Shown: in pieces, positions 532-63,426 of the stretch | Layout of the letters: each line of letters starts with the position of its first letter | Position numbering within the stretch: the first letter of the stretch is position 1 | Assembly: GCF_054482595.1 (NCBI RefSeq) | Contig: NZ_CM137008.1 | DNA: 64,000 bases | Strand: one strand, 5' to 3' | Made by a program: the position numbers and the translations under genes | Notes under the pieces: generated by a model | Databases searched by the model: none | The model's input: the letters and a program-made list of their open reading frames with translations, nothing else | Told to the model about the DNA's origin: nothing

Positions 532-772
532 TGTAAAGCATCCACAATAGAAGAAGGATGCCGCAGGTTTCATCAATATTACGCGATGATGAGAACCAGA
601 TGCGACGTTGGCCGGCAGGTCTTCGGGCTTGGAGGGGTATCTAAGATACTAAGAGATGATGACTTCCCACCGAATGGCAGTGTCCGCATAACGCAATCAT
701 CGCACCTTTCCTTACCGCTGCGCGTCAGCTCCAGATTCGCACTGGATTCCCTATTAACTCACAGGACCGGCA
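532..772 (-). promoter_or_regulatory. btuB 5' leader containing the cobalamin (AdoCbl) riboswitch
   Basis: Minus-strand sequence upstream of the btuB ATG reads as the btuB leader (GCCGGTCCTGTGAGTTAATAGGGAATCCAGTGCGAATCTGGAGCTGACGCGCAGCGGTAAGGAAAGGTGCGATGATTGCG...). Extent approximate. Confidence 0.8.
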
Positions 773-899
773 AGTGGATGCTACAGGTTGTAACAAGTTA
801 CTGTCCAGACGTAGCTCACAAATAGGAATTCATCAAGATCTGGACATCTGATGAGCAATCCCTACAATCGCCGCGTACTTTAATTTTTCAGGATACATC

Positions 900-2039: not shown

Positions 2040-2399
2040 TTACTCAGCAACTTCCTGCTTACGGTTACGCATCTTCGCGCCAATCCAGAACACCATAATG
2101 ACGGAGAGTACTGCCGGGAAGAAGTTAGAGCCGATATCCGGATATTCCGCACGAACTACCGTGCTGTACAGCAGTACGCCGAGAATAAAACAGGCAGCTG
2201 CCAGACCCGGCAAGCCTACCGGCATGGTGCGATTAAGATAACGTTGATGCAGGCAGTAAACCGTCAGCACCAGGGAAATAATCGGGAATACAGAAAATGG
2301 CACAATGGAGCTAAACAGCGCTGCGAAAGTACCATTAATCGATAAGCCAGCAACCAACGCCAGCAGCAGCGTACCTCTATCTTGATTTGCTTGTTTCAT
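2040..2399 (-). CDS. yijD: Inner membrane protein YijD (DUF1422)
   Basis: 119 aa hydrophobic [33 protein letters not shown]...; 1-nt overlap (TAATG) with fabR stop. Confidence 0.9.
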
Positions 2400-3046
2400 T
2401 ACTCGTCCTTCACATTTCCCGGAATAATTGCGGTTTTCTCTTGTTCACGGCGATACCAGTAATAAGCCCCTTTCGAAATCATTCGCAGTTGCAGTACCAG
2501 TCGCTCTTCTAATTGCCGACGTTGTTCGACGCCGACGTCCAACGCCTCGGCACCCGCACTGAAGACAATTGTCACCATTGCTTCGGCTTGCGCTTCAGTA
2601 AACGCACGCGGCATATGGTTTTCGAGTTCCAGATAGTCCGCAAGTTCCGCAATGAAGTGCTGAATTTCACGCGCAACGGCGGCACGAAACGCAGCGGAGG
2701 TGCCGGAGCGTTCCCGCAATAATAACCGGAAGGCGTTAGGATTATTACCGATGAACTCCATAAATGTGGAGACCGAGGTGCGGATCACACTCCCGCCTTT
2801 GGCGATACGCTGACGCGCCTGGCGCATGAGTTGGCGTAGCATTAAACCGCTCTCATCAACCATGGTCAGACCCAGTTCGTCTACGTCGCGGAAATGCCGA
2901 TAAAAAGAGGTGGGAGCAATGCCCGCTTCACGCGCCACTTCACGCAAACTCAAGCTGGCGAAGCTGCGTTCAGCACTTAATTGGCTAAATGCGGCTTCCA
3001 CCAGCGAACGGCGGGTTTTTTCTTTTTGTTGCGCTCTTACGCCCAT
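2399..3046 (-). CDS. fabR: TetR-family repressor of unsaturated fatty acid biosynthesis FabR
   Basis: Conserved protein starts [29 protein letters not shown]...; track ORF extends to 3142 but the conserved start is the internal Met (coordinate 3046). Confidence 0.9.
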
Positions 3047-3152
3047 CACGATGTCTGAATCCTTGCCAAAAGTACTGCTGGCACTATACCAGAGAATGAA
3101 CATACTGGATTGCTCCAGTATTGTGAATGAACGGTAACGCAATAAAACATAT

Positions 3153-4469
3153 TTACTGCAATTCTTTGGCCGGTTCTTTTACGTACAACAACGCCAACAT
3201 CGACAGCAACGTGCCTCCACCCAGATACCACGCCGGAGCCGTCAAACTATCCAGCAACACGATGGATTGCGTAGCGAAATATTGAGCAAAACCGCCAAAG
3301 ATTGCCACACCAATGCTATAAACCAGCGCAAAACCCAATGCCCGAATCCGTTTCGGCAACAGTTCAGAGATCAACAACATCACTGGCACACCGCCAAGCG
3401 TGGTAAAGCTGACCATCACGAAAACCACCGTCAGCAACATGCCAGGGCTTGGGTAATTCACCAACAGCCAGAATGACGGCCAGCTACAGATCAGCACCAT
3501 CACACGGGAGATTAAAATCAGCTTTTTACGCCCGACCGAATCGCACAACATCCCCACAAGCAGCGCACCCACAAACGTAATAACGCCCGCCAGTAACATC
3601 GCTGCATGAGAATAATGTTGAGGCATCGCCAGATACTTCGCCGCCCAGGTGCCGTAATAAAAGAGGGAGATATAGGTTGCGACCGTGCTACCAATAGCGA
3701 GTAAAACGCCATTAACGATAGTCGCCTTATGTTGCAGGAGCAGAGAAAACGCGCTTTCGCTGGTAGCAGCTTTTTTATTGCGCACAGGCTCAGGTACGTC
3801 ATTTTCCAGACTCAAACGCAACCAACAGCCGACAGGCGCTAATAACACGCCAATAAAAAACGGCACACGCCAGCCCCATTCAGCCATGACGGTTTCTGAA
3901 CCGGTCGCAAAGGGCAGCCATGCACTTAAACCTAAAGCGACAACACCTCCAAAAGTTGTTGCCAGGCCTTGAGTCGCCAGTGACCAACTGCTGTAAAAAC
4001 CGCGACGATTTGCCGGAGCTGACTCCACCAGTAGCGACATTGAAGCCCCAACTTCACCGCCTGCTGCAACACCCTGAATCAAACGAGCAAGTACCAGAGT
4101 TGCCGTTCCCCAATAGCCCGCCGTCGCATACGTCGGCGCAATGCCAATCATCAACGTGCCGAGGCTCATCAGGGCAATAGTGAACACCATCGCGGGTTTG
4201 CGTCCGAAACGATCGGCCCAGGCCCCGACGATAATTCCACCAAGCGGGCGCATAAAAAAACTCACGCCAAACGTTGCAAATGCCAGTAACAGCGCGACAT
4301 TGTGATCAGCGCTGGGTGGGAAGAAAAGTGTACTGATATAGACCACAAAAAAGTTGTAAACGCCAAAATCAAACAATTCGAGCGCATTGCCAAACGCCGA
4401 GGCAAAAATCACCCGCCTGCCGCTGGGCTTTTTCTTCACACTCACGGTTTCATTTACGATCGCCGTCAT
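3153..4469 (-). CDS. MFS transporter, metabolite:H+ symporter (MHS) family-like; substrate unknown
   Basis: 438 aa, many predicted TM segments, MFS signature region GxxxDRFGRK ([12 protein letters not shown]). Lies in a segment I do not recall between fabR and sthA in K-12. Confidence 0.8.
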
Positions 4470-4511
4470 TCCATGTTCCTTGCCAAAAAGTGTTGTTGTG
4501 TGTTGTTTTAT

Positions 4512-5678
4512 TTATTGCAGCCAGGCTTCTACCAGTGCGCCCCAGTAGCTGCTTGCCGGGACCAGACTTGCATCGTTGAAGTCGTAACCCGGGTTATGCA
4601 CCATGCAGGAACCTTCCCCGACATCGCCATTACCGAATAACAGGAAACCGCCTTTGGGTTGGGCTTCCAGCATGAAAGAGAAATCTTCACTGCCCATCAG
4701 AGGCTTGATGCCAAACTCGGCCAGCTCTTCACCAAACGTTTTACACGCCACCTGCCAGGCGAAGCGCGCCATCTCCTCGTCATTCACTAATACCGGTGTA
4801 CCGTTAACATGCGTAACCTCAGCCGTAGCACCAAAGCTGGCAGCCAGGGCTTGTGCCAGAGCAGGAATACGGGTCAGAAGAAGTTGTCGGGTATCGCGGC
4901 TAAGAGAGCGGACGCTGATTTTCATCTCAGCACTGTCAGGAATGACGTTAGCCGCCTCACCCGCAACAATGCTGCCGACGGTAATTACCGCCGCTTCCAG
5001 CGGATCGACATTGCGCGACACAATGCTTTGTAATGCGGTGGTGATATGTGCCGCGACCAGCACCGGATCGATGGCTTTGTGCGGGATCGCACCGTGTCCG
5101 CCACAACCACGAACTGTAATATGGAACTGATCCATTGACGCCATCAGTGCCCCTGGCTGGAAATAAAACTTACCCACCGGCAGACCGGGCATGTTATGCA
5201 TGCCGAAAATGACATCGCAGGGGAAATGATCAAAAAGCCCCTCTTTAACCATGATCTCACCGCCATTAATCATCTCTTCCGCAGGCTGGAAGATAAGACG
5301 TAACGTGCCGTTAAAACGGCGGGTTTCGGCAAAATAACGCGCGGCCCCCAGCAGTATGGTGGTATGCCCGTCATGCCCGCAGGCGTGCATTAAACCAGGA
5401 TGTTTACTGGCCCAGAGCTTGCCACTATTTTCATAAATCGGCAGCGCATCCATATCCGCCCGCAGGCCAATACTTTTCTCTCCGTCGCCCACTTTTAACG
5501 TGGCCACTATCCCCGTCGTCGCCAGTCCTTGCTCTACTTCATAGCCCCACTGACGCAGCTTTTCCGCAACCAAAGCACTGGTTTTAAATTCTTGTAATCC
5601 CAGCTCCGGGTTTTCGTGGATCTGATGGCGGATCTCACGCAGTTCTTCCTCAAACCCTCGAATATAGTGTTCGATCAT
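4512..5678 (-). CDS. M20D-family amidohydrolase (hippurate hydrolase / N-acyl-amino acid amidohydrolase-like)
   Basis: 388 aa with HACGHDGH metal-binding motif typical of peptidase M20D (AbgA/HipO/ILR1 type); co-oriented with the MFS gene, 42 bp apart. Confidence 0.8.
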   Translation of the reverse strand: MIEHYIRGFEEELREIRHQIHENPELGLQEFKTSALVAEKLRQWGYEVEQGLATTGIVATLKVGDGEKSIGLRADMDALPIYENSGKLWASKHPGLMHACGHDGHTTILLGAARYFAETRRFNGTLRLIFQPAEEMINGGEIMVKEGLFDHFPCDVIFGMHNMPGLPVGKFYFQPGALMASMDQFHITVRGCGGHGAIPHKAIDPVLVAAHITTALQSIVSRNVDPLEAAVITVGSIVAGEAANVIPDSAEMKISVRSLSRDTRQLLLTRIPALAQALAASFGATAEVTHVNGTPVLVNDEEMARFAWQVACKTFGEELAEFGIKPLMGSEDFSFMLEAQPKGGFLLFGNGDVGEGSCMVHNPGYDFNDASLVPASSYWGALVEAWLQ

Positions 5679-6007
5679 CGGCTATTCCTTTATTCACTTA
5701 TAAACAGGCTAATTAACGGATTTTATTGATGGTATAAATACAAATAACCCATCAATATAAAATATTTATATGTTTGTTTTATAAGAATATTTCATAAAGA
5801 CAATAACAAAAAAGCACGCTTCGGCAAGATAAAACTATCAGCCATAATAAAAAGCGATTAATAGTGAATAAATGGGTTAAGAAGGAGGCAGACAAAGCAA
5901 AGGCCGCTCACGCTATAGCCAGATTAATGACGGGGATCAATTGGCTTACCCGCGATAAAATGTTACCATTCTGTTGCTTTTATGTATAAGAACAGGTAAG
6001 CCCTACC

Positions 6008-7408
6008 ATGCCACATTCCTACGATTACGATGCCATAGTAATAGGTTCCGGCCCCGGCGGCGAAGGCGCTGCAATGGGCCTGGTTAAGCAAGGTGCGCGC
6101 GTCGCAGTTATCGAGCGTTATCAAAATGTTGGCGGCGGTTGCACCCACTGGGGCACCATCCCGTCGAAAGCTCTCCGTCACGCCGTCAGCCGCATTATAG
6201 AATTCAATCAAAACCCACTATACAGCGACCATTCCCGACTGCTCCGCTCTTCTTTTGCCGATATCCTTAACCATGCCGATAACGTGATTAATCAACAAAC
6301 GCGCATGCGTCAGGGATTTTACGAACGTAATCACTGTGAAATATTGCAGGGGAACGCTCGCTTTGTTGACGAGCATACGTTGGCGCTGGATTGCCCGGAC
6401 GGCAGCGTTGAAACACTAACCGCTGAAAAATTTGTTATTGCCTGCGGCTCTCGTCCATATCATCCAACAGATGTTGATTTCACCCATCCACGCATTTACG
6501 ACAGCGACTCAATTCTCAGCATGCACCACGAACCGCGCCATGTACTTATCTATGGTGCTGGAGTGATCGGCTGTGAATATGCGTCGATCTTCCGCGGTAT
6601 GGATGTAAAAGTGGATCTGATCAACACCCGCGATCGCCTGCTGGCATTTCTCGATCAAGAGATGTCAGATTCTCTCTCCTATCACTTCTGGAACAGTGGC
6701 GTAGTGATTCGTCACAACGAAGAGTACGAGAAGATCGAAGGCTGTGACGACGGTGTAATCATGCATCTGAAGTCGGGTAAAAAACTGAAAGCCGACTGTC
6801 TGCTCTATGCCAACGGCCGCACCGGTAATACCGATTCGCTGGCATTACAGAACATTGGGCTGGAAACTGACAGTCGCGGACAGCTGAAGGTCAACAGCAT
6901 GTATCAGACCGCACAGCCGCACGTTTACGCGGTGGGCGACGTGATTGGTTATCCGAGCCTGGCATCAGCGGCCTATGACCAGGGGCGCATTGCCGCGCAG
7001 GCGCTGGTAAAAGGCGAAGCCACCGCGCATCTGATTGAAGATATCCCTACCGGCATTTACACCATCCCGGAAATCAGCTCTGTGGGCAAAACCGAACAGC
7101 AGCTGACCGCGATGAAAGTGCCATATGAAGTGGGCCGCGCCCAGTTTAAACATCTGGCACGCGCACAAATCGTTGGCATGAACGTGGGCACGCTGAAAAT
7201 TTTGTTCCATCGGGAAACGAAAGAGATTCTGGGCATTCACTGCTTTGGCGAGCGCGCTGCCGAAATTATTCATATCGGTCAGGCGATTATGGAACAGAAA
7301 GGTGGCGGCAACACTATTGAGTACTTCGTCAACACCACCTTTAACTACCCGACGATGGCGGAAGCCTATCGGGTAGCTGCGTTAAACGGTTTAAACCGCC
7401 TGTTTTAA
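6008..7408 (+). CDS. sthA: Soluble pyridine nucleotide transhydrogenase SthA (UdhA)
   Basis: 466 aa [38 protein letters not shown]...; FAD/NAD dinucleotide-binding motifs. Confidence 0.95.
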
Positions 7409-8308: not shown

Positions 8309-8403
8309 TATCCATCCTCCATTGCCACGATAGTTCGCGGCGATAGGTAGCATAGCAACGAACGATTATCCCTATCAAGCATTCTGACTGATAATTGCTC
8401 ACA
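8309..8403. promoter_or_regulatory. oxyR-oxyS divergent promoter region with OxyR binding site
   Basis: Intergenic between oxyR start and oxyS 5' end; known arrangement in E. coli. Sites not individually mapped. Confidence 0.6.
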
Positions 8404-8516
8404 GAAACGGAGCGGCACCTCTTTTAACCCTTGAAGTCACTGCCCGTTTCGAGAGTTTCTCAACTCGAATAACTAAAGCCAACGTGAACTTTTGCGGATC
8501 TCCAGGATCCGCTTTT
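8404..8516 (+). ncRNA. oxyS: OxyS small regulatory RNA
   Basis: Sequence GAAACGGAGCGGCACCTCTTTTAACCCTTGAAGTCACTGCCCGTTTCGAGAGTTTCTCAACTCGAATAACTAAAGCCAACGTGAACTTTTGCGGATCTCCAGGATCCGC followed by T-run (intrinsic terminator). Confidence 0.93.
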
Positions 8517-8574
8517 TTTTGCCATAAAAAAGCCCGGCGATAAGCCAGGCTCAAATTTATACATATAAATGTTC

Positions 8575-63325: not shown

Positions 63326-63426
63326 GCCATATGCGGCGCGAACGCCTTATCCGGCCTACAAAAGTTTGCAAATTCAATAAATTGCAGAATTCATGTAGGC
63401 CTGATAAGCGAAGCGCATCAGGCATT
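63326..63426. repeat. REP palindromic repeats
   Basis: gccatatgcggcgcgaacgccttatccggcctaca ... gtaggcctgataagcgaagcgcatcaggcatt. Confidence 0.7.

Follow-up and report, generated by a model that had tools for sequence, protein, structure and literature searches.

The DNA analysed here (the window: a stretch of 64,000 nucleotides from contig NZ_CM137008.1 of RefSeq assembly GCF_054482595.1), which is 100% identical to Escherichia coli XH990, carries an MFS transporter gene and an M20D amidohydrolase gene between fabR and sthA. The order is trmA (plus strand, 900–2000), yijD (minus strand, 2040–2399), fabR (minus), MFS (minus), M20 (minus), sthA (plus) and oxyR (minus), and thus the core gene fabR lies directly downstream of the two-gene module on the same strand, and the core gene sthA is divergent from it. 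The CDS coordinates of fabR and sthA were taken from the RefSeq record of the identical XH990, in which the module genes are named 'citrate-proton symporter' (MFS) and 'M20 aminoacylase family protein' (M20). The list of open reading frames agrees with a preliminary description of the locus, which had placed a 438-residue MFS transporter and a 388-residue M20D protein on the minus strand between these two core genes:

2399–3049, minus strand: fabR, TetR-family repressor of unsaturated fatty-acid synthesis (ORF list and XH990 RefSeq CDS)
3153–4469, minus strand: MFS transporter, 438 amino acids, metabolite:H+ symporter-like, second gene of the putative operon (ORF list, profile matches)
4470–4511, minus strand: spacer of 42 nt from the M20 stop to the MFS start (allele alignment)
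4512–5678, minus strand: M20D metallo-amidohydrolase, 388 amino acids, WP_021557399.1, first gene of the putative operon (ORF list, profile matches)
6008–7408, plus strand: sthA, soluble pyridine nucleotide transhydrogenase (ORF list, RefSeq CDS)

In the 42-nt spacer, the MFS start codon is preceded by AAGGA. The spacer is identical across three E. coli alleles and terminator prediction returned nothing for it, from which we infer that M20 and MFS are co-transcribed; judged by its sequence, the pair most likely forms an intact two-gene operon.

The two proteins and their pairing in other bacteria

The M20 protein carries the motif MHACGHDGH at residues 97–105 and scores 354.2 bits against the M20D subfamily model TIGR01891 over residues 13–372, above the cutoff of 153.75. 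Pfam assigns Peptidase_M20 to residues 72–384 (E 4e-42) with an inserted M20_dimer at 184–278 (E 2e-12), that is, the two-domain architecture of a catalytic and a dimerisation (satellite) domain, and the absence of a signal peptide indicates a cytoplasmic enzyme. The motifs MHACGHD, QPAEE, FGMHN and VHNP recur at aligned positions in YxeP (1ysj) and ILL2 (1xmb), from which we presume that the assignment of the metal ligands can be transferred; the predicted metal/catalytic residues are C100, H102, E134/E135, H161 and H361, and all five M20D metal-ligand positions are conserved. The alignment thereby bears out the catalytic motif and the M20D membership that had been read from the DNA, and the fold is unambiguous from sequence.

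Among solved structures, Bacillus subtilis YxeP is the best match with 243 bits, and together with Arabidopsis ILL2, Staphylococcus aureus 4ewt and Corynebacterium 6slf it spans a range of 222–243 bits. All four, of which 6slf is an N-acyl-glutamine aminoacylase, align over the full length and have the same two-domain build, and they have MHACGHD, QPAEE, GMH and the position of the C-terminal His ligand in common with M20. As the four are about equally distant, none of them predicts the M20 substrate, and none of their genes adjoins an MHS-type transporter gene, unlike M20. No equivalog-level family was reached, as CpsA scored 334 (cutoff 500) and DoeB2 320 (cutoff 550), and a large protein search with M20 was functionally uninformative, all of its matches being near-identical proteins of E. 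coli and Shigella that bear generic names.

The MFS protein is clearly a member of its superfamily (Pfam MFS_1, E 2e-27; Sugar_tr, E 4e-22) and has MFS motif A at residues 82–91. Its best NCBIfam family is TIGR00883, metabolite/H+ symporter (TC 2.A.1.6), with 320.6 bits, below the cutoff of 443.45, followed by the tricarballylate/proton symporter TcuC (NF011656) with 286 bits (cutoff 445); a KgtP-type model gave 211 bits. The MHS transporters TcuC, KgtP, ProP and ShiA are thus the highest-scoring families and have motif A in common with the MFS protein, but every curated cutoff of MHS-type models is missed. The gene identities and lengths of the preliminary description are correct. With an amide hydrolase as its conserved genomic partner, the transporter is likely to have a substrate unlike those of TcuC, KgtP, ProP and ShiA.

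The same pairing recurs elsewhere. M20 followed by MFS on one strand was found in at least 13 loci of Burkholderiales, Pseudomonas and other proteobacteria, comprising nine loci of our homologue comparison and those of Caballeronia, Burkholderia sp. PAMC 26561, B. pseudomallei and a conjugative Cupriavidus plasmid. This recurrence backs the generic uptake-plus-hydrolysis pair of the preliminary description. In the LysR–M20–MFS cassettes of B. pseudomallei p1VBP21822, Cupriavidus metallidurans BS1 plasmid p1, PAMC 26561 and Paraburkholderia ginsengiterrae, the families and their order are the same as here. Identities of the Escherichia proteins to the cassettes of Burkholderiales and Pseudomonas are 51–57% for M20 and 36–46% for MFS. 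A divergent LysR regulator, as is usual there, was seen in seven of the foreign loci checked and a porin in two, whereas the Escherichia module has neither and possesses a conserved AT-rich control region instead. A Variovorax MFS homologue adjoins an amide hydrolase from another family, M14. Beyond LysR, M20, MFS and porin, the genes vary from locus to locus in the loci examined, and the neighbours therefore provide no pathway clue to the substrate.

Distribution, acquisition and loss of the module

An intact module is present in ~28% of the complete E. coli genomes (1505 of 5426) and is thus not a chance feature. The carriers include O157:H7, ST131, UTI89, Nissle and ATCC 25922, and both reading frames are intact in every carrier listed. 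In E. albertii, the module occupies the same site with the same synteny, while fabR and sthA are adjacent, ~195 bp apart, in six outgroup loci (Salmonella, Klebsiella and four other relatives), which argues that the module was acquired. The dS values between E. coli and E. albertii are 0.22–0.33 for M20 and 0.63 for MFS, resembling those of the flanking core genes fabR (0.27) and sthA (0.50), and together with the synteny in E. albertii this points to an old acquisition that predates the split of the two species. The GC content of the module coding regions, 52–54%, equals the host average. Among the matches listed, the next-best M20 homologue comes from Silvimonas with just 62% identity, followed by Beta-, Alpha- and Gammaproteobacteria; the ranking applies to these matches, so that closer homologues in Enterobacterales are possible, and the accompanying M20 tree is a crude neighbour-joining tree. 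Traits of mobile elements were not seen, with zero direct or inverted repeats of at least 7 bp linking the module ends and zero IS or integrase genes.

These observations suggest that the segment from 3144 to about 5905 represents an old, horizontally acquired two-gene operon that would have entered between the fabR and sthA promoters in an ancestor shared by E. coli and E. albertii. The donor was probably a Burkholderiales-like LysR–M20–MFS cassette, whose LysR activator would have been left behind.

In K-12, fabR and sthA are divergent neighbours, as the preliminary description had stated, 330 bp apart with zero genes between them, and K-12 lacks both module genes. However, the K-12 spacer is not that of the outgroups, as it retains one end of the module:

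3144–3187, minus strand: left module end kept by K-12 (K-12 homology extends to 3187; outgroup homology ends at ~3143)

This segment holds the MFS stop codon, the 9 nt that follow it and the final 32 nt of the reading frame, and the outgroups are without it. The scar in K-12 comprises the last 35 nt of the MFS gene and a 73-bp filler, and the retained MFS end encodes a K-E-x-A C-terminal motif that is also seen in foreign MFS homologues. Since K-12 retains the MFS 3' end, it is a deletion derivative, and these alignments indicate that its fabR–sthA intergenic region is a deletion scar rather than the ancestral state. The identical scar is found in 3918 of the 5426 complete genomes (~72%), and in our reading a single 2.7-kb deletion took the module out of the lineage that gave rise to K-12. 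The filler occurs once per genome, and its comparison with the module upstream region and the MFS 3' end in four alleles gave scores no better than those of shuffles (59–136 of 500 reached the score). As the filler thus has no detectable relation to the module, the deletion was not a simple excision. The view of the module as an insertion, put forward in the preliminary description, therefore holds relative to other Enterobacteriaceae but not relative to K-12, whose arrangement is a secondary deletion. The scar status matters when K-12 promoter maps of fabR or sthA are applied to other strains, and as a presence/absence marker with two alleles the locus cleanly tells K-12-like genomes apart from those of B2, O157 and related strains.

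The module is an ordinary, already annotated accessory cassette. The genes c4924–c4926 of CFT073 were given as a K-12-absent gene set in 2010, and that study scores them absent from O157 (PMC2831201), but O157:H7 genomes carry both genes; the discrepancy probably reflects the three-gene synteny criterion used there. Literature searches by protein accession and by Z tags (Z5522–Z5524) returned nothing, and mentions were found for c4924 and ECs4893 only. There is no conceptual novelty in the arrangement, as transporter-plus-amidohydrolase cassettes and lineage-specific deletions are routine.

Selection and the control region

Both genes are under strong purifying selection, with dN/dS values of 0.02–0.04 for MFS and 0.02–0.15 for M20, and such selection would keep the module in B2, E and some other lineages. 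Upstream of M20 lies a module-specific control region that is 94–98% identical among the E. coli alleles and E. albertii, compared with just 62–84% at four-fold degenerate sites of the flanking genes. The features of the intergenic DNA on both sides of the module are:

3099–3127, minus strand: fabR promoter-like site, TTCACA, 17 nt, TATGTT (promoter scan, outgroup alignment)
5679–5888, no strand assigned: module-specific control region, 210 bp, 27.6% GC (allele alignment)
5725–5756, no strand assigned: 7-bp inverted repeat ATTGATG-N18-CATCAAT (arms invariant in four alleles)
5757–5785, minus strand: AT-rich motif CTTATAAAACAAACATATAAATATTTTAT (pattern match)
5889–6007, plus strand: sthA-proximal upstream region, 119 bp (98.6% identity to K-12 across the matched block)

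The inverted repeat, 46–78 nt upstream of the M20 start, is a candidate operator. The motif CTTATAAAACAAACATATAAATATTTTAT is AT-rich, precedes the M20 ATG by 78 nt and is one base off a site located 78 nt upstream of CFT073 c4924, and this site is listed among TosR-responsive genes (Table S2, PMC5956150). Under tosR overexpression, c4924 was up with a log2FC of 6.6 (PMC5956150), and ECs4893, a tag that by its gene numbering is probably a module gene, was up by about 2 at stationary-phase entry (PMC2241611).

The statement of the preliminary description that no linked regulator is present was upheld, as tblastn with four cassette LTTRs detected no LysR remnant in positions 5600–6100, and the only LTTR nearby is OxyR. 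Simple consensus scans of 5661–6010 for CRP, sigma-54, FNR, Fur, ArgR, Lrp, FabR and OxyR gave no site, and the matches to the minimal NAC motif in this range are trivial in such AT-rich DNA. Rfam returned nothing but one sub-threshold chance match for 2950–6150, and the small ORFs of the M20–sthA spacer showed no conservation between alleles. We therefore propose that minus-strand transcription of the operon starts in the AT-rich region beside sthA and, given that the operon lacks a regulator of its own, that silencing by nucleoid proteins probably keeps its expression low; PapB-family regulators such as TosR may then de-repress it.

The consequences for the flanking genes are likely to be smaller than first assumed. 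It had been noted that the insertion displaces fabR from the sthA promoter region; the displacement stands, but its effect is less dramatic, as 3099–3127 and 5889–6007 are unchanged in both arrangements. The block around the fabR −35 element is conserved in Salmonella, Klebsiella and others and is kept with or without the module, and the sthA-nearest part of 5889–6007 is conserved in other Enterobacteriaceae.

One could also see the module as a relic in decay, without functional relevance and on its way out of the species. In favour are its absence from 72% of complete genomes, which traces to the spread of one deletion, the lack of a dedicated regulator and its apparent silence in standard hippuricase tests. 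However, the reading frames are intact in all carriers listed, the low dN/dS values hold across depths up to E. coli versus E. albertii, the control region is conserved beyond synonymous sites, and transcription is inducible (PMC5956150). The present data refute a decaying relic, and we regard it as very improbable.

Substrate class and alternative functions

Our favoured interpretation, which we hold with moderate confidence, is that the module is an acquired operon for the uptake and hydrolysis of an anionic amide, later deleted in the K-12 lineage. The MFS protein would use proton symport to bring in the anionic amide, for which an N-acyl-L-amino acid or something closely analogous is the most likely candidate, and the cytoplasmic, metal-dependent M20D enzyme would cleave the amide to a free L-amino acid and a carboxylic acid, both of which could feed general metabolism as scavenged nitrogen or carbon. 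Gene order is what suggests the coupling of transporter and enzyme, and the substrate class is likewise a proposal.

The K-12 system abgABT–abgR, which serves p-aminobenzoyl-glutamate uptake and hydrolysis and has a LysR regulator as the foreign cassettes do, follows the same logic of acyl-amino acid import and subsequent cytoplasmic cleavage by the M20D family. It combines an AbgT-family transporter with the hydrolase pair AbgA/AbgB, whereas the module has an MFS transporter and a single M20D protein. An AbgA/AbgB-type identity of M20 is disfavoured, as the AbgA-like structure 3io1 scored only 123 bits compared with 222–243 bits for the other M20D structures and the adjacent transporter is MFS rather than AbgT; the 3io1 score also disfavours the aminobenzoyl-glutamate-type substrate that had been suggested.

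Hippurate had been suggested as well. M20 would then be a HipO-type hippuricase, and MFS would import hippurate or export benzoate. M20 belongs to the M20D subfamily (TIGR01891) that contains HipO of Campylobacter jejuni, the source of the label under which M20 appears as 'hippurate hydrolase' or 'Hippuricase' and CFT073 c4924 as 'putative hippuricase', urine is rich in hippurate, and many uropathogenic B2 strains are among the carriers. HipO, unlike M20, is not linked to MFS. Moreover, ATCC 25922, in which both module genes are intact, is hippuricase-negative with 4-hydroxyhippurate (PMC12635141), and E. coli NCTC 10418 did not liberate benzoate from N-benzoylglycine. In the passage of PMC4867780 that cites Perry et al. 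(1998), 42 E. coli strains are given as hippurate-negative, and as ~28% of complete genomes carry the genes, some of these strains were probably carriers. Published phenotypes thus give no indication of HipO-type hydrolysis, a weak negative since silencing could mask activity, and we consider hippurate utilisation to be quite unlikely.

For a role in the uptake or metabolism of citrate or tricarboxylates, one can cite the RefSeq label of the transporter, the second-ranking NCBIfam match to TcuC and the heading 'Citrate metabolism' for c4924–c4926 in Table 2 of the 2010 survey (PMC2831201). Yet the TcuC score is far under its cutoff and no citrate-specific model was reached, an M20D amidohydrolase plays no part in citrate catabolism, and the conserved partner of the MFS clade hydrolyses amides (M20, in Variovorax M14) and is no citrate enzyme. 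The module itself has an amidohydrolase and core genes as neighbours, with zero citrate enzymes. E. coli is classically citrate-negative under aerobic conditions, yet about 28% of complete genomes carry the MFS gene, which also counts against citrate, and we attach hardly any probability to this reading. Neither of the database labels, 'hippuricase' or 'citrate symporter', is thus supported, and correcting 'hippuricase' and 'citrate-proton symporter' is worthwhile, as these names could mislead metabolic models and diagnostic reasoning.

Somewhat less improbable, but still doubtful, is a salvage or detoxification of N-acetylated amino-acid derivatives, such as N-acetylcysteine conjugates or N-acetyl-diamino acids, which likens the pair to B. 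subtilis YxeP, which acts on the route through S-(2-succino)cysteine, or to DoeB2 in ectoine degradation. YxeP is the top solved structure, DoeB2 reaches 320 bits, and the polycarboxylate-type relatives TcuC and KgtP would suit succinylated or acidic conjugates. On the other hand, the nearly equal scores of YxeP, ILL2, 4ewt and 6slf indicate no specific affinity, the DoeB2 score is far under its cutoff, and zero acetyltransferase, monooxygenase or ectoine genes were seen beside the pair in the loci examined.

On the favoured reading, an anionic amide uptake and hydrolysis operon, a conserved, selected uptake–hydrolysis cassette sits in major pathogenic lineages. A more speculative extension, to which we assign a low probability, would see the module as a niche-adaptation locus by which B2, E and related lineages use a host-derived acyl-amino-acid conjugate; the LysR regulator would have been lost and control rewired to nucleoid proteins and PapB-family regulators, so that the operon would be switched on with adhesins during colonisation and read through into fabR–yijD. 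No canonical terminator is predicted between the operon and fabR–yijD, and if the idea were true, operon read-through would couple membrane-lipid regulation (fabR–yijD) to the colonisation state. Conjugates abundant in urine or gut that come into question as candidates for such a niche are phenylacetylglutamine, N-acetylaspartate or N-acetylglutamate, mercapturates and a hippurate analogue.

Gene content and history of the fabR–sthA interval

As the preliminary description had stated, two extra minus-strand ORFs of 388 and 438 amino acids, encoding an M20D amidohydrolase (M20) and a transporter (MFS), lie between fabR and sthA, which in K-12 are divergent neighbours with 330 bp between them. 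The region is E. coli chromosome and is 100% identical to strain XH990. The MFS ORF starts 42 nt past the end of the M20 ORF; in the E. albertii locus (L004) this spacer is 51 nt, and the M20 gene (L004 6001–7158) is three codons shorter (385 aa, ending in ALVEA rather than ALVEAWLQ).

Features of the fabR–sthA interval
2399–3049, minus, fabR
3153–4469, minus, MFS ORF, 438 aa, RefSeq 'citrate-proton symporter'
4512–5678, minus, M20 ORF, 388 aa, RefSeq 'M20 aminoacylase family protein'
5679–5888, module control region, 210 bp from the M20 start codon to the resumption of K-12 homology, 27.6% GC
5725–5756, dyad ATTGATG-N18-CATCAAT, invariant
5757–5785, minus, AT-rich motif, one mismatch to the motif upstream of CFT073 c4924
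6008–7408, sthA, divergent from the module

Homology to K-12 reaches position 3187 and so takes in the last 35 nt of the MFS ORF; 3188–5888 is replaced in K-12 by 73 bp of its own (1789–1861 of the K-12 locus, L001), and homology resumes at 5889. In all six outgroup loci (Salmonella, Klebsiella and four other Enterobacteriaceae), sthA and fabR are directly adjacent, about 195 bp apart, and the roughly 132 bp that K-12 has and the outgroups lack consist of the MFS remnant, the 73-bp filler and a few bases of the right end of the module. The remnant codes for a ten-residue stretch whose K-E-x-A motif lines up with the one at the C-terminus of MFS homologues from Burkholderia, Paraburkholderia and Pseudomonas; the remnant is therefore part of the MFS gene and not pre-existing DNA. 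The gene order in E. albertii is identical (oxyR-sthA-M20-MFS-fabR-yijD-trmA), the synonymous divergence of the module between the two species is comparable to that of the core genes on either side, and its coding GC of 52–54% equals the host average.

Synonymous divergence (dS), E. coli versus E. albertii
M20, 0.22–0.33
MFS, 0.63
fabR, 0.27
sthA, 0.50

These comparisons make it very probable that a single insertion preceded the split of E. coli and E. albertii, and that the K-12 arrangement arose by a later internal deletion. The module had been described as inserted, which is correct relative to the six outgroup loci, but K-12, with its MFS 3' remnant, would be a deletion derivative and not the ancestral state. 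The main loose end for the insertion-then-deletion reading is the 73-bp filler, in which no similarity to the module was detected. It occurs once per genome and is not present in the Salmonella and Klebsiella outgroups.

Distribution and selection

The full module was found in 1505 of 5426 complete E. coli genomes and the K-12-type scar, at an identity of at least 95%, in 3918, and the two thus form an essentially biallelic polymorphism. Among the carriers are O157:H7, O145, ST131 EC958, UTI89, Nissle 1917 and ATCC 25922, as well as CFT073 according to the literature (c4924; PMC2831201); Shigella dysenteriae and S. boydii also appear as source names, and K-12 and O111:H8 lack the module. For both genes, dN/dS was 0.02–0.15 in all pairs, indicating strong purifying selection, and both are annotated as intact in every carrier listed, which together rule out a relic.

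Two of 1507 module matches fell on records classed as plasmid, such as NZ_CP170376.1 (169 kb, strain 2406_w1_hybrid); both are probably pieces of chromosome from hybrid assemblies and not true plasmid copies. Recombination breakpoints lie within the MFS gene, which is a mosaic: its central 800 bp (3500–4300) are 94.1% identical to ST131, about 92% to other B2 strains and 89.2% to O157:H7, with a dS of 0.28–0.46 and a dN/dS of 0.02–0.04. Such alleles are unusually deep within E. coli, in contrast to M20, sthA and fabR, whose dS versus O157 is only about 0.02–0.03.

The two proteins and their database names

Judged by its sequence, the M20 protein is a bona fide M20D amidohydrolase: it scores 354 bits against TIGR01891 (cutoff 154), matches Peptidase_M20 and M20_dimer in Pfam, and keeps the ligand motifs MHACGHD (C100, H102), QPAEE (E134/E135), FGMHN (H161) and VHNP (H361). 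Full-length alignments were obtained with YxeP (1ysj, 243 bits), ILL2 (1xmb, 235), 4ewt (223) and 6slf (222), and the Abg-type 3io1 reached only 123 bits. No equivalog model was passed (CpsA, 334 versus a cutoff of 500; DoeB2, 320 versus 550). Its N-terminus has no signal peptide, which places the enzyme in the cytoplasm.

The MFS protein matches MFS_1 and Sugar_tr in Pfam, contains a ten-residue motif A, and has the metabolite/H+ symporters (TIGR00883, 321 bits) and TcuC (286 bits) as best families, both scores being under the curated cutoffs. The name 'citrate-proton symporter' is unsupported, because these cutoffs were missed, the conserved partner is an amide hydrolase, and E. coli is classically citrate-negative. 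The label 'Citrate metabolism' for c4924–c4926 (PMC2831201) is unsupported for the same reasons.

Hippurate, which had been proposed among the possible substrates, is weakly disfavoured by phenotypes, and the name 'hippuricase' is likewise unsupported: ATCC 25922, which carries the intact module, was negative in a 4-hydroxyhippurate assay (PMC12635141), NCTC 10418 was negative with N-benzoylglycine, and Perry et al. (1998; cited from PMC4867780) reported 42 strains as negative. This is a weak negative, as silencing could hide the activity.

Outside Escherichia, the top M20 homologue among the matches listed is from Silvimonas, with only 62% identity, followed by Bordetella, Paraburkholderia, Variovorax, Pseudomonas and rhizobia (46–57%). 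In a neighbour-joining tree, Escherichia M20 stands beside Silvimonas, in the part holding transporter-linked homologues. The M20-then-MFS order recurs in nine of the loci compared, and also in Caballeronia, Burkholderia sp. PAMC 26561, B. pseudomallei and a conjugative Cupriavidus metallidurans plasmid, whereas a Variovorax MFS homologue adjoins an M14 metallopeptidase. A porin is added at two loci, and neighbours beyond LysR, M20, MFS and porin are not conserved. This recurrence with changing surroundings favours reading the pair as a unit complete in itself, which takes up and hydrolyses an acyl-amino-acid-like compound. At seven of the loci checked, a LysR regulator is encoded divergently, but neither a LysR gene nor a remnant was found at the Escherichia module, which bears out the earlier statement that no regulator is linked.

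The module belongs to a known kind of system and is itself uncharacterised, and the gene set was already known, being annotated in RefSeq and catalogued in 2010 (c4924–c4926) as a set that UPEC strains have and K-12 lacks (PMC2831201). New here are the probable polarity (the module being ancestral and the K-12 arrangement a scar of its deletion), the biallelic pattern with its single scar, the constraint on a control region that has no linked regulator, the finding that the cassette recurs elsewhere with LysR, and the mismatch between database names and phenotype.

Control region and other features of the window

Between E. coli alleles and E. albertii, identity in the control region is 94–98%, compared with only 62–84% at four-fold degenerate positions in the four genes around it, a difference that, on sequence comparison, marks it as constrained regulatory DNA. 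The AT-rich motif is a one-mismatch copy of one reported, for TosR-responsive genes, at 78 nt upstream of the CFT073 gene c4924; c4924 itself ('putative hippuricase') rose by log2 6.6 on overexpression of tosR, whose product is a PapB-family protein thought to oppose silencing by H-NS and Lrp (PMC5956150). H-NS-type silencing of the module may be envisaged. In O157 Sakai, ECs4893, a non-K-12 gene that by its numbering would belong to the module, was up about 2 as cells entered stationary phase (PMC2241611). Consensus scans of the region for common regulators were negative, as was Rfam for the module.

The genes are indeed farther apart, as described previously, but presence or absence of the module makes no difference to the promoter-like −35/−10 elements of fabR (3099–3127) or to the 119 bp upstream of sthA, and both are in part conserved in outgroups; neither core promoter is therefore displaced. 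Between the MFS stop codon and fabR, no canonical terminator was predicted; read-through into fabR-yijD on operon induction is possible.

In ATCC 25922 (L096 16103–18667), a second accessory pair, an MFS transporter and the D-mannonate dehydratase ManD, lies between oxyR and argH; the corresponding gap in the window (8309–8574) lacks it and holds only OxyS (8404–8513). Between yiiX and rpmE (about 39286–43076), the XH990 annotation gives degenerate mobile and toxin remnants, namely a frameshifted IS1 transposase, RHS core fragments, an ISEc1 transposase with an internal stop and a truncated DUF6531 gene. A 173-aa ORF (304–825, plus) that overlaps the cobalamin riboswitch is probably spurious.

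Rfam matches above the gathering score in the rest of the window
597–786, minus, cobalamin riboswitch upstream of btuB
43455–43507, minus, L31 ribosomal leader
48119–48176, plus, ClpQY (hslVU) promoter element
63361–63402, plus, ES036/CssrF sRNA
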